26,287 bases of DNA, taken from IMG/VR virus record IMGVR_UViG_2609460221_000003; one strand, 5' to 3'. This document shows positions 2,905 through 26,287 of the stretch, piece after piece; positions within the stretch are counted from its first letter, which is position 1; each line of letters begins with the position of its first letter. The stretch comes from a virus. Taxonomy: Duplodnaviria; Heunggongvirae; Uroviricota; Caudoviricetes. The notes beneath the pieces were generated by a model. The model was given only the letters and a program-made list of their open reading frames with translations. It did no database searches and was not told the origin of the DNA. The translations under genes and the position numbers were made by a program.

Positions 2905-3137
2905 CACAATTCAGTAAGTTGACAGTTGCCTGTCAGACTGGGCATTTGTTAAAAAAATTTCGCATGGTGAATCCCCCTGAGCGGAGGGGCGACTGGTGAC
3001 GGTATAATCTCTGATTATCAAAACGAGAATGACGCGGGTTTAGTGGCACCGGGCTGAACTCACCGGGAGGCACCCGGCACCATGTGCATGATGATACAGA
3101 TACGCGGCTTTAGCCCCTCTCCGGAGGGGGTTTCTTG
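2905..3137 (+). ncRNA. Candidate structured RNA unit B (paralog of unit A), ending in an intrinsic terminator
   Basis: Same three conserved blocks as unit A with a divergent central segment; TTGACA box at 2919-2924; CCCCTC-TCCG-GAGGGG hairpin plus GTTTCTT at 3114-3137. Confidence 0.3.
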
Positions 3138-3142
3138 TGGGC

Positions 3143-23902: not shown

Positions 23903-24645
23903 ATGACACAGACTGAATCAGCGATTCTGGCGCATGCCCGGCGGTGTGCGCCTGCGGAGTCGTGCGGCTTCGTGATAAGCACGCCGGAGGGGGAGCGGTA
24001 TATCCCTTGTGTGAATATTTCCGCAGAGCCGGAGGCGTATTTTCGTATCGCACCGGAAGACTGGCTGCGGGCAGAGATGCAGGGGGAGATTGTGGCACTG
24101 GTCCACAGTCATCCCGGTGAGCTGCCCTGGCTGAGCGAGGCTGACCGGCGGCTGCAGATAAAAAGCGCACTGCCTGGTGGCTGGTCTGCCGGGGGGAAAT
24201 TCATAAATTCCGCTGTGTGCCACATCTGACAGGACGGCGCTTTGAGCACGGGGTGACGGACTGTTACACGCTGTTCCGGGATGCATACCATCTGGCGGGA
24301 ATTGATATGCCGGATTTTCATCGCGAGGATGACTGGTGGCGCAACGGCCAGAACCTGTACCTGGACAATATGGCGGTCACCGGCTTTTACCGGGTGNCCC
24401 TGTCCTCTGCACAGCCGGGCGATATCCTGCTGTGCTGCTTCGGCGCATCGGTGGCTAATCATGCCGCCATTTACTGCGGCAACGGTGAACTGCTTCACCA
24501 TATTCCTGAACAACTGAGTAAACGGGAGAGGTATTCCGAAAAATGGCAACGACGAACGCATTCTGTCTGGCGTCACCGCCACTGGCACACATCTGCCTTC
24601 ACGGGGATTTACAACGATTTGGCCGCCGCCTCAGCCTGTATGTGA
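23903..24645 (+). CDS. K: Tail assembly protein K (MPN/JAB plus NlpC/P60 domains), frame-disrupted
   Basis: N-terminal piece MTQTESAILAHARRC... (MPN-like, HSHP motif) ends at 24229; C-terminal piece with NlpC/P60 Cys/His motif (GDILLCCFGASVANHAAIYCGNGELLHH) is in another frame from about 24217; N at 24397. 3' end uncertain (overlaps I). Confidence 0.75.
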
Positions 24646-25223
24646 ACACGGCAGCGGAAGTCATCCGGGCGCTGTCGTTACAGGTGCCGGGCTTTCGCCG
24701 TCAGATGAACGAAGGCTGGTACCAGATACGTATTGCCGGTTATGACACGGCACCGGAGGCGGTGTATGCCCGTCTTCACGAACAGCTGGGTGAGGGAACG
24801 GTCATCCACATTGTGCCGCGACTGGCCGGGGCCGGAAAGGGTGGACTGCAGATTGTGCTGGGGGCGGCAGCCATCGTGGGCTCTTTCTTCACGGCCGGAG
24901 GCTCGATGGCGTTATGGGGTACAGCCCTGAGTGCCGGTGGTTTTTCTGCCACCACGATGCTGTTTTCACTGGGTGCCAGCATGATACTGGGCGGAGTGGC
25001 CCAGATGCTGGCCCCGAAGGCAAAAACACCGGATTACCGCGCAACGGATAACGGCAGACAGAACACGTACTTTTCCTCGCTGGATAACATGATTGCCCAG
25101 GGGAACCCGATGCCGGTGCCTTACGGGGAAATGCTGGTTGGCTCCCGCCGTATATCCCAGGACATCAGCACCCGTGATGAAGGCGGGGGCGGAAAGGTCG
25201 TGGTTATCGGGCGGCAGGGGTAA
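24543..25223 (+). CDS. I: Tail assembly protein I
   Basis: 226 aa, lambda I-like (ICLHGDLQRFGRR...GVAQMLAPKAKTP...NTYFSSLDNM). Confidence 0.85.
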   Translation: MATTNAFCLASPPLAHICLHGDLQRFGRRLSLYVNTAAEVIRALSLQVPGFRRQMNEGWYQIRIAGYDTAPEAVYARLHEQLGEGTVIHIVPRLAGAGKGGLQIVLGAAAIVGSFFTAGGSMALWGTALSAGGFSATTMLFSLGASMILGGVAQMLAPKAKTPDYRATDNGRQNTYFSSLDNMIAQGNPMPVPYGEMLVGSRRISQDISTRDEGGGGKVVVIGRQG

Positions 25224-25230
25224 AAAGAAT

Positions 25231-25268
25231 AAAAAAATCCCGCAGTGATCGCGGACAGGAACTGCGGG
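25231..25268 (-). terminator. Intrinsic terminator oriented for the minus strand
   Basis: Plus strand AAAAAAA then CCCGCAGT-(14-nt loop)-ACTGCGGG; on the minus strand this is a hairpin followed by a U-run. Confidence 0.45.
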
Positions 25269-25330
25269 AGAGTTACGAAGATTAAGTGTAAGGAATTATT
25301 CTTATATCACGACAAAAAAATTAACGCAGA
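25231..25330 (-). ncRNA. Candidate small RNA (about 95 nt) between tail genes I and J
   Basis: Minus-strand sigma70-like promoter TTCACA-16 bp-TATAAT (plus coordinates 25356-25361 and 25334-25339), then about 95 nt with no ORF, ending at the minus-strand terminator 25231-25268. Confidence 0.3.
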
Positions 25331-25432
25331 GAAATTATACGCGCCACAGTCAGTGTGTGAAAATGTGAAGATATTCAGAATTTTTATGCCATTACCGGTT
25401 TTAACCAACAGGATTATCGGTGGGCATGAAAG

Positions 25433-25470
25433 AAAACCCCGGTATCTGCTGATACCGGGGTTTCTCTTTA
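25433..25470. terminator. Bidirectional intrinsic terminator
   Basis: GAAAGAAAA-CCCCGGTAT-CTGCTG-ATACCGGGG-TTTCTCTTT: perfect 9-bp stem, A-rich upstream, T-rich downstream. Confidence 0.55.
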
Positions 25471-25566
25471 GCATGGCAGAAATGTGTTTCATGCTTTTCG
25501 GGCGAAGGATATCCGACTTCTGTACGGAATGGCAAGTGGCGGTTAATTTATTCAGGGGAAGGCTGT

Positions 25567-26287
25567 ATGGGAAAAGGTGGCGGTAAGGCACACACGCCTC
25601 GTGAGGCGAAGGATAATCTCAAATCCACGCAGATGATGAGTGTGATTGATGCGATTGGTGAGGGACCGATAGAAGGTCCGGTGAAGGGACTGCAGAGTAT
25701 TCTGGTGAACAAAACCCCGCTGACGGACACGGACGGTAATCCCGTGATACACGGTGTGACCGCGGTCTGGCGTGCCGGGGAGCAGGAGCAGACACCACCG
25801 GAAGGCTTTGAGTCCTCCGGAGCTGAAACCGGACTGGGCGTGGAAGTGACGAAGGCAAAACCGGTGACGCGCACCATTACGTCCGCGAACATTGACCGCC
25901 TGCGGGTTACCTTCGGGGTGCAGTCACTGGTGCAGACCACGTCAAAGGGCGACCGTAATCCTTCCTCTGTCCGGATTCTGATTCAGTTACAGCGTAATGG
26001 CCGCTGGGTGACGGAAAAGGACGTCACCATTAACGGCAAGACCACCTCACAGTTCCTGGCCTCGGTGATTCTGGATAATCTGCCTCCCCGGCCCTTTAAC
26101 ATCCGGATGGTCAGGGAGACGGCGGACAGCACCACGGACCAGCTGCAGAATAAGACGCTGTGGTCGTCATACACCGAAATCATCGATGTGAAACAGTGCT
26201 ACCCGAACACGGCCATTGTGGGGCTGCAGGTGGATGCGGAGCAGTTCGGCGGCCAGCAGATGACGGTGAACTACCATATCCGCGGTC
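25567..26287 (+). CDS. J: Host specificity / central tail fibre protein J, N-terminal part (3' end beyond window)
   Basis: ATG 25567 opens a frame that runs without a stop to the window end; translation MGKGGGKAHTPREAKDNLKSTQMMSVIDAIGEGPIEGPV... matches the lambda J N-terminus. Absent from the ORF track because it has no stop. Confidence 0.9.
   Translation, partial: MGKGGGKAHTPREAKDNLKSTQMMSVIDAIGEGPIEGPVKGLQSILVNKTPLTDTDGNPVIHGVTAVWRAGEQEQTPPEGFESSGAETGLGVEVTKAKPVTRTITSANIDRLRVTFGVQSLVQTTSKGDRNPSSVRILIQLQRNGRWVTEKDVTINGKTTSQFLASVILDNLPPRPFNIRMVRETADSTTDQLQNKTLWSSYTEIIDVKQCYPNTAIVGLQVDAEQFGGQQMTVNYHIRG

Follow-up and report, generated by a model that had tools for sequence, protein, structure and literature searches.

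What occupies the gap between tail genes I and J in a 26,287-nucleotide (nt) stretch of Caudoviricetes DNA (IMG/VR record IMGVR_UViG_2609460221_000003; the whole stretch that was analyzed is referred to here as the window)? An earlier reading of the sequence (the original prediction) had described an AT-rich insert of about 340 bp at this point and had proposed that it carries a moron-type gene for a small RNA (sRNA). We find that positions 25231-25385 of the window, on the minus strand, very probably are the gene for an Hfq-dependent sRNA of the PasB/EcOnc22-24 family, which sits as a moron between I and J and is antisense to the late operon. The moron-type proposal is supported in that homologues at the same locus (PasB and EcOnc22-24) have been shown experimentally to be sRNAs. 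Such sRNA genes are already known as a kind; the window copy is a diverged and apparently undescribed allele class.

A minus-strand promoter-terminator unit between I and J

Gene I ends at 25223 and gene J, whose product has the N terminus MGKGGGKAHTPREAKDNLKSTQ..., starts at 25568. This leaves a gap of 344 bp (25224-25567) with a GC content of 41.9%, compared with 60.6% for gene I and 57.8% for gene J, in agreement with the size and AT richness first described; the GC content of 25231-25385 is 37.4%. In lambda, I and J had been taken to be adjacent. They are near-adjacent but do not abut, as 60 bp (lambda 15445-15504) separate them. The lambda I-J region resembles that of the window in gene order and in having a hairpin before J, and it differs in its length and in containing no antisense promoter-terminator unit. 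The window unit thus shows the marks of a moron, namely, its own promoter and terminator, a deviant GC content, and a site between near-adjacent genes. The core features of the unit are as follows.

25334..25361, minus strand: sigma-70 promoter, consisting of TTCACA (25361-25356), a 16-nt spacer, and TATAAT (25339-25334), with 11 of 12 consensus matches
25231..25268, minus strand: rho-independent terminator, with a 7-bp stem (CCCGCAG/CUGCGGG), a 16-nt loop region, and A plus U7
25231..25327, minus strand: predicted primary transcript of a PasB-family sRNA, 97 nt, with +1 at about 25327 and the 3' end in the U-run 25237-25231
25314-25231, minus strand: stretch corresponding to the published 83-nt PasB, 84 nt

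A consensus scan ranked TTCACA-16-TATAAT, present exactly where the original prediction had placed it, as the top-scoring promoter-like site of the region. The scanned 2.3 kb contained 3 promoter-like sites, compared with 1.2 ± 1.1 in shuffled sequences. The intrinsic terminator that had been claimed at 25231-25268 was borne out by both scanning and folding: the scan returned a hairpin at 25255-25239 followed by a T-run, and folding extended the stem to 25268-25239, with CCCGCAG (25268-25262) paired to CTGCGGG (25245-25239) and followed by A and U7 (25237-25231). The transcript expected from this promoter and terminator, put at about 95 nt in the earlier reading, is predicted at 97 nt and contains no open reading frame (ORF) beyond a few codons. 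It has features of the Hfq-binding type (a U7 3' tail, an AAG-AAU-AAU tract, and a 5' U7 tract).

Homologues at the same junction in pathogenic E. coli

Five prophage sRNAs have been described in enteropathogenic Escherichia coli (EPEC) O127:H6 E2348/69 (Pearl Mizrahi et al. 2021, PMC8550237). One of them, PasB, is 83 nt long and is encoded on the minus strand of NC_011601 at 1466343..1466261, in prophage PP6, between E2348C_1436 and E2348C_1437 (PMC8550237 Table S6). We identified these two flanking genes as I and J. PasB was verified by Northern blotting with the probe AATCCCGCAGTGATCGCGGAGCT; its stability is Hfq dependent, and its level is higher in the non-activating condition (PMC8550237). 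The log2 fold changes listed for pasB are -6.8 and -2.4, in a DESeq2 table consistent with a comparison of the hfq mutant with the wild type (PMC8550237). In uninduced cultures, PasB had a baseMean of 482-1082, against 5-15 for the flanking tail genes (PMC8550237). The claim that the RNA is expressed in the lysogen independently of late transcription therefore gains support through this homologue, which is abundant while the flanking tail genes are silent. The ligation partners of PasB in ligation-and-sequencing analysis of RNA interactions (RIL-seq) include ler, perB, bfpB, bfpI, ftsZ, galE, and rplX (PMC8550237). We also considered hha as a PasB target and rejected it: the RIL-seq rows examined tie hha to PasC, and hha is absent from the PasB partners listed for the activating condition.

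Comparison of I-J junctions in related prophages, a check proposed along with the original prediction, placed the same unit at the same site in E2348/69 and in the Sakai homologues described below. PasB resembles the window unit in its position in the I-J gap, its antisense strand, and its TTCACA-16-TATAAT promoter. Across the promoter region, 65 of 73 aligned positions are identical between the window and E2348/69, and the spacer differs by one base. The 3' 25 nt of the window RNA are those of PasB and overlap the PasB Northern probe, and the terminator stem is identical. The two RNAs are of similar length and have the A-rich tract, UCCUU, and AUCUUC in common. They differ in the RNA body, which is 73-74% identical with a longest common exact word of 25 nt, in the terminator loop, which is 5 nt longer in the window, and in the J-proximal segment, which is of a short type (86 nt) in E2348/69 and of a long type (188 nt) in the window. 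The targets of the window RNA may be different from those of PasB.

A second set of homologues comes from enterohemorrhagic E. coli (EHEC) O157:H7 Sakai. EcOnc22, EcOnc23, and EcOnc24 were reported as homologous Hfq-bound orphan RNAs of prophages Sp15, Sp14, and Sp11 (Tree et al. 2014, PMC4104026 Table S2), and EcOnc22 gave a band of about 85 nt that was destabilized without Hfq (PMC4104026). One review that lists EcOnc22-24 assigns no function to them. The Sakai record has been revised since 2014, and the resulting shift was bracketed at +126 to +148 bp (about +130) at two sites on the sRNA HnrS (EcOnc10/12), for which the sequence and ends have been published. Once shifted, the Hfq peak of EcOnc22 coincides with an RNA (2902836-2902926 in NC_002695.2) extending from an AATAAT -10 hexamer (2902824-2902829) to a CCCGCAG...CUGCGGG-U7 terminator (2902894-2902926), and all three RNAs have their peaks within I-J gaps, antisense to the late genes. 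EcOnc22-24 thus resemble the window unit in junction, orientation, CCCGCAG/CUGCGGG stem with U-run, AAUCUUC, and A-rich tract. They differ in being 73.5% identical to the window RNA (longest common exact word, 15 nt), in having a degenerate -35 region with an AATAAT -10, and in being multicopy, with up to 6 copies per genome. These sequence comparisons suggest that EcOnc22-24 and PasB represent the same locus, a link that we did not find stated in the literature, including the table of the PasB paper and a 2026 census of Pas sRNAs (Zhu, Shabalina and Storz preprint, 10.64898/2026.05.13.724894).

Two further sRNAs were compared with the window RNA and set aside. HnrS (EcOnc10/11/12), a prophage sRNA of 66 nt, acts as a repressor of hha (Poudyal et al. 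2026, PMC13502914). It is likewise prophage borne, Hfq associated, short, furnished with an intrinsic terminator, and antisense to late genes, and it contains AAUAAUAAUCUUCU, which resembles the A-rich tract and AAUCUUC of the family. However, its locus lies downstream of the lysis genes and before the terminase, and it is only about 50% identical to the window RNA, with a longest common word of 8 nt. With its 193 nt and its position within an intergenic region that exceeds 1 kb, sRNA-17 of E. coli K1 RS218 cannot be the window RNA. As a side observation, HnrS (AUAACAAUAAUAAUCUUCUACCC..., Sakai Sp9 and Sp12) resembles the PasC Northern-probe region (reverse complement, GTACATCTACCCGTTTTAGCCAGCG). 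RIL-seq ties PasC to the hha-ybaJ transcript (PMC8550237 Table S3), and the validated target of HnrS is hha; PasC and HnrS are possibly homologous.

Conserved and variable parts of the unit

Among 5,426 complete E. coli genomes, 1,691 contain the whole module, as do 51 phage records. Scanning viral contigs with the promoter block gave 120 loci, and these, together with other loci, yielded 126 modules. These contain 32 distinct RNA alleles, among which the window allele is the commonest (38 modules). The promoter and terminator are kept across the recurring modules, and the RNA body diverges. The -10 hexamer is TATAAT in 96 of the 126 modules and AATAAT in 27 (together, 123 of 126). The terminator is intact in all but three, two of which have an insertion sequence (IS)-like insertion and one of which is incomplete. 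Of 20 aligned alleles, 19 have an identical terminator stem and the other has A for G at one position, whereas the loops range from 2 to 16 nt; that the stem is kept while the loops vary points to selection on the terminator hairpin itself. On this conserved scaffold we distinguish at least three RNA-body classes, about 74% identical to each other, with the intermediate or recombinant alleles a3, a5, a8, a14, a29, and a31 bridging them.

Conservation extends upstream of the -35 hexamer, where a further block contains a match to a CRP site.

25362..25385, minus strand: conserved block upstream of -35, AAAAATTCTGAATATCTTCACATT on the RNA-sense strand
25364-25379, plus strand: CRP-like site, TGTGAAGATATTCAGA, within the conserved upstream block

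The upstream block is identical in four phage and prophage variants whose RNA bodies have diverged. TGTGAAGATATTCAGA is the sole match to TGTGA-N6-TCANA in the window; at least one match occurs in 21% of shuffled sequences, so the match is not significant, and its center at about -44.5 is a non-canonical position for CRP. The site is a lead only, in that it would fit the higher level of PasB in lysogeny broth than in glucose-rich Dulbecco's modified Eagle medium.

Within the RNA body, the allele alignment revealed four conserved features: a 5' U-tract, an A-rich tract of the A-R-N type, UCCUU, and AUCUUC. The last three are located in the window as follows.

25295..25305, minus strand: A-rich A-R-N-type tract AUAAGAAUAAU, candidate Hfq distal-face contact
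25288..25295, minus strand: conserved UUCCUUAC with the anti-Shine-Dalgarno-like UCCUU, candidate seed 1
25276..25283, minus strand: AAUCUUCG, with an AUCUU core invariant in the aligned alleles, candidate seed 2

The AAG-AAU-AAU of the window tract corresponds to AAA-AAC-AAC in E2348/69. AUAAGAAUAAU is able to pair with the 5' U-tract (25320-25314), and RNAalifold returned this pairing as a 5' stem with three compensatory pairs; 97% of cells were paired, compared with 41-64% when the partners were slid. In this model, part of the stem would lie upstream of the 5' end published for PasB. We regard it as possible and not as established. AAUCUUC (25283-25277) is predicted to be unpaired in the window allele, and AUCUUC is common to the E2348/69 and Sakai alleles. 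In E2348/69, CUCCUUC is complementary over 7-9 nt to the RIL-seq fragments of ler, bfpI, and perB (not significant), and the AAUCUUCG region has complementary runs to the ler, galE, and bfpI fragments. Unrestricted duplex folding of PasB alleles against the RIL-seq fragments paired everything through long loops, and a test of contiguous k-mers was used instead. For the real allele and six PasB target fragments, runs of at least 7 nt are concentrated at CUCCUUC and AUCUUCAU.

Possible mode of action

Because the window unit shares its promoter with PasB and its terminator stem with both PasB and EcOnc22-24, we infer that its RNA behaves as these homologues do. By this analogy, it would most likely be an Hfq-dependent sRNA that is produced in the lysogen and acts in trans by base pairing. 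Host RNA polymerase would transcribe 25327 to 25231 into a primary RNA of about 97 nt, which may be trimmed to about 84 nt; the A-R-N tract and U-tail would bring the RNA onto Hfq; and the RNA would pair in trans with host and accessory mRNAs via UCCUU (25295-25288), AAUCUUC (25283-25277), or both.

Several observations weigh against parts of this account. Both the expression and the Hfq dependence of the window allele are argued from its homologues PasB and EcOnc22. The published PasB 5' end, placed by RNA-seq coverage, lies 14-15 nt downstream of the promoter-predicted +1. This could reflect imprecision of the predicted +1 or of the annotated PasB end, or else processing of the primary transcript within its U-rich 5' stretch; the mature window RNA may therefore be about 84 nt instead of about 95 nt. 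The authors of the PasB study found no common target motif (PMC8550237), and the k-mer clustering described above is not significant for the real PasB allele, since 75 of 300 shuffles do equally well; our assignment of seeds in the window RNA is accordingly weak. In the Sakai class, two pairs of the 5' stem are broken, so that it is not preserved there, and its covariation comes essentially from two lineages. In Sakai prophage Sp10, an RNA body of this family persists behind sodC without a promoter of its own. Finally, there is no Rfam family for these RNAs, and hence no curated model for scoring the window RNA: a search of Rfam 15 gave nothing in the insert at the gathering threshold, the best match reaching 19.4 bits against a threshold of 40 and being hairpin driven. 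The sub-threshold matches (STnc310, Yfr10, CopA, and others) were all rejected as hairpin or terminator driven.

A different reading is that the RNA, or the act of transcribing it, works in cis on the phage's own late transcript. Pairing with the I-J spacer could lead to RNase III cleavage that uncouples I from J, or converging polymerases could interfere with each other, and the outcome would be to tune the dosage of tail-tip genes or to contribute to the silence of J in the lysogen. Over 97 nt, the RNA and the late transcript are perfectly complementary, the RNA ends at a distance of 7 nt from the stop codon of I, its I-J location is kept across all three allele classes even though its sequence is not, and antisense-oriented cargo recurs at this junction. 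However, the homologues depend on Hfq, and RIL-seq finds them ligated to numerous unlinked mRNAs; tail assembly in lambda and many relatives proceeds without such an RNA; and PasB is abundant at a time when late genes are essentially silent. We consider a cis-acting role unlikely, and it is in any case compatible with the trans-acting role that we favor.

The J-proximal segment and its hairpin

The remainder of the gap lies outside the sRNA gene. Its features are listed below.

25386..25567, plus strand: long-type J-proximal segment, phage backbone including the J ribosome-binding region
25434..25463, terminator-like on both strands: perfect 13-bp hairpin, 25434-25446 paired to 25451-25463 with the loop TGCT
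25506..25535, minus strand: weak promoter-like site TTGCCA-18-TATCCT, 9 of 12 consensus matches; with the hairpin it would give an RNA of about 70 nt (25499 to 25428), an unsupported candidate

The segment between the promoter block and J occurs in two types, the long type of the window (188 nt, counted as 25380-25567 in this comparison) and a short type of 85-86 nt. The long segment was found in 1,446 genomes, almost always at an identity of at least 99%, and it adjoins J in every match listed. Both types occur with both RNA classes, which indicates that the junction is a mosaic around a conserved promoter.

The original prediction had also placed a perfect 9-bp bidirectional terminator at 25433-25470 and had assigned it the role of insulating the sRNA unit from J. 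The hairpin is there, with 13 rather than 9 bp; a dedicated insulator, on the other hand, it does not appear to be, and it is probably the phage's own pre-J hairpin. It folds with -30 to -32 kcal/mol on either strand (z, about -6.9), and its U-rich tracts are imperfect (UUUCUCUUU on the plus strand and UUUUCUUUC on the minus strand). The lambda gap has a terminator-like plus-strand hairpin, AAACCGCC-TGCG-GGCGGTTTT-GTCATTT, about 20 nt before J. Short-type junctions likewise have a terminator-like plus-strand hairpin, formed by ACAGGCATCC and GGATGCCTGT and followed by TGTTTTTGTG, with a compensatory variant, GCAGGCACC/GGTGCCTGT. The hairpins of the lambda, long-type, and short-type junctions occupy the same position and are non-homologous. 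Since lambda and the short-type junctions also have one, we take the pre-J hairpin to be a backbone feature. An insulating effect in the lysogen is nevertheless plausible: the hairpin could stop stray transcription from either direction, and the Q-modified late polymerase would read through it.

The weak promoter-like site raises the question of whether the long-type segment encodes a second minus-strand sRNA of about 70 nt, in addition to the PasB-family RNA and not in place of it. We consider this quite improbable. In its favor, a very strong hairpin, with UUUUCUUUC after it on the minus strand, is found some 35 nt downstream of the site, and the long segment has about 100 bp more than the short type without other obvious content. 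Set against this, the match to the consensus is weak and shuffled sequence yields sites of the same quality, the U-tract is interrupted, the lambda and short-type junctions have a pre-J hairpin without such a promoter, the near invariance of the long segment leaves no covariation signal, and the Rfam matches in this segment are sub-threshold and hairpin driven.

sodC at the same junction and coding alternatives

The I-J gap of Sakai Sp10 contains sodC (ECs_1989), which is antisense to the late genes and has its own promoter and terminator; the cargo region, including an RNA body next to sodC, is at 1963484-1964334 of NC_002695.2. This cargo resembles the window unit in junction, orientation, and possession of promoter and terminator; it differs in that it encodes a Cu/Zn superoxide dismutase, whereas the window has the sRNA unit only and no coding cargo. 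The presence of sodC there marks the I-J junction as a cargo hotspot that repeatedly accepts antisense cargo. Right downstream of sodC and its terminator, Sp10 carries an RNA body of the window class (1963490-1963600), complete with terminator but lacking the sRNA promoter, which may be a remnant or a passenger in the sodC 3' untranslated region. The breakpoint lies at the predicted +1 of the sRNA. This fits a sodC cassette that replaced the promoter side of a preexisting unit and argues that the sRNA was not derived from sodC.

The Sp10 arrangement, together with two loci in which the module is broken by an IS3-like end, is also what would be cited for regarding the window unit as a non-functional remnant of a coding moron such as a sodC cassette, with the promoter and terminator matches as leftovers. 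That the insert might be a remnant of a known coding moron had been named at the outset as a finding that would speak against an sRNA gene. No part of the module is similar to the sodC coding sequence, 123 of 126 modules, and hundreds of genomes with an identity of at least 99%, have retained an intact promoter and terminator, and homologues with the same promoter are abundantly expressed. We therefore regard the remnant explanation as very unlikely. The IS3-like interruption falls just after the -35 hexamer in both loci (TTCACAAACTGA, then ACCGCCCCGGGAATCC... beyond the break), one of which is a contig of Asaia platycodi. H105 was considered as an empty site and discarded, since it is a deletion in a decayed prophage with a truncated I gene and gives no information on boundaries.

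Least likely of all is a plus-strand small protein encoded in the gap (window ORF 25386-25586, 66 amino acids): the frame is open and has been annotated in ASU11 ("hypothetical protein") and vB_EcoS-569R3 ("tail fiber protein"), but neither it nor longer frames of 113 and 94 amino acids match Pfam, it runs through the 13-bp hairpin, no Shine-Dalgarno sequence is seen before its ATG at 25386, it overlaps the start of J out of frame, short-type junctions, which serve the same phages, lack it, and RefSeq has no gene on identical DNA under the 97-nt RNA or the J-proximal segment among the matches listed.

Other observations on the window and on the promoter block

The exact 23-nt promoter block was also found on short contigs of Asaia platycodi JCM 25414 (546 bp) and Streptomyces flavalbus (3.4 kb); these occurrences are likely E. 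coli DNA contamination of the assemblies. Elsewhere in the window, two tandem plus-strand copies of STnc100 (RF02076) lie at 2465-2655 and 2933-3142 and score 136 and 159 bits against a gathering threshold of 47. STnc100 has been reported to be structurally homologous to another Pas sRNA, PasD (10.64898/2026.05.13.724894). The window contains seven single N bases (8685, 9408, 16746, 17698, 21776, 22068, and 24397), and that at 24397 appears as X in translations of the K/I region.

Distribution of the allele classes and implications

The 2026 census searched for PasB with blastn at a word size of 28 and a query coverage of >75% inside Escherichia, the settings being relaxed only outside Escherichia/Shigella (10.64898/2026.05.13.724894). 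Megablast at word size 28 with the published 83-nt PasB as the query found no match in the window. With the word size lowered to 11, the alignment was confined to the 25-nt terminator, 30% of the query. With that word size and coverage, the census can see only the E2348/69 class.

We counted the classes one by one in allele-specific searches of the 5,426 complete E. coli genomes, and the counts may overlap. The window class was found in 800 genomes (613 records at an identity of at least 99%), the E2348/69 class in 956, and the Sakai class in 542, with at most 6 copies per genome. Loci identical to that of the window occur, for example, in E. coli 7/2 (NZ_CP023820 1294440-1294536) and SK1144 (NZ_AP018784 2876846-2876942). 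No annotated feature lies under the match among the matches listed for the allele classes. We found no paper describing the window allele class, and a literal search of papers for its sequence gave no match. The census states that EHEC and EPEC lineages are without PasB (10.64898/2026.05.13.724894). This statement probably reflects allele divergence, since the Sakai class is present at this junction in O157 genomes.

The element is an ordinary one for the field, as sRNAs of the family have been known since 2014 and 2021, and it opens no long-standing question. The family extends considerably beyond what the census suggests, and the three class counts taken together would place it in a large share of the complete E. 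coli genomes. The window and Sakai classes were missed, which bears on which pathotypes are said to lack PasB. If, as we envisage, the allele classes are shuffled by recombination, their target sets probably differ. One may extend this, tentatively and as a rather doubtful proposal, to an I-J sRNA that acts as a swappable seed cassette, shuffled among prophages and rewiring different host and virulence mRNAs in each lysogen, with the apparent lack of PasB in EHEC and EPEC an artifact and with a possible additional action in cis on the I-J transcript. Since PasB ligates the ler, perB, and bfp mRNAs in EPEC, allele-specific targeting would be of interest in lineages of extraintestinal pathogenic E. 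coli.

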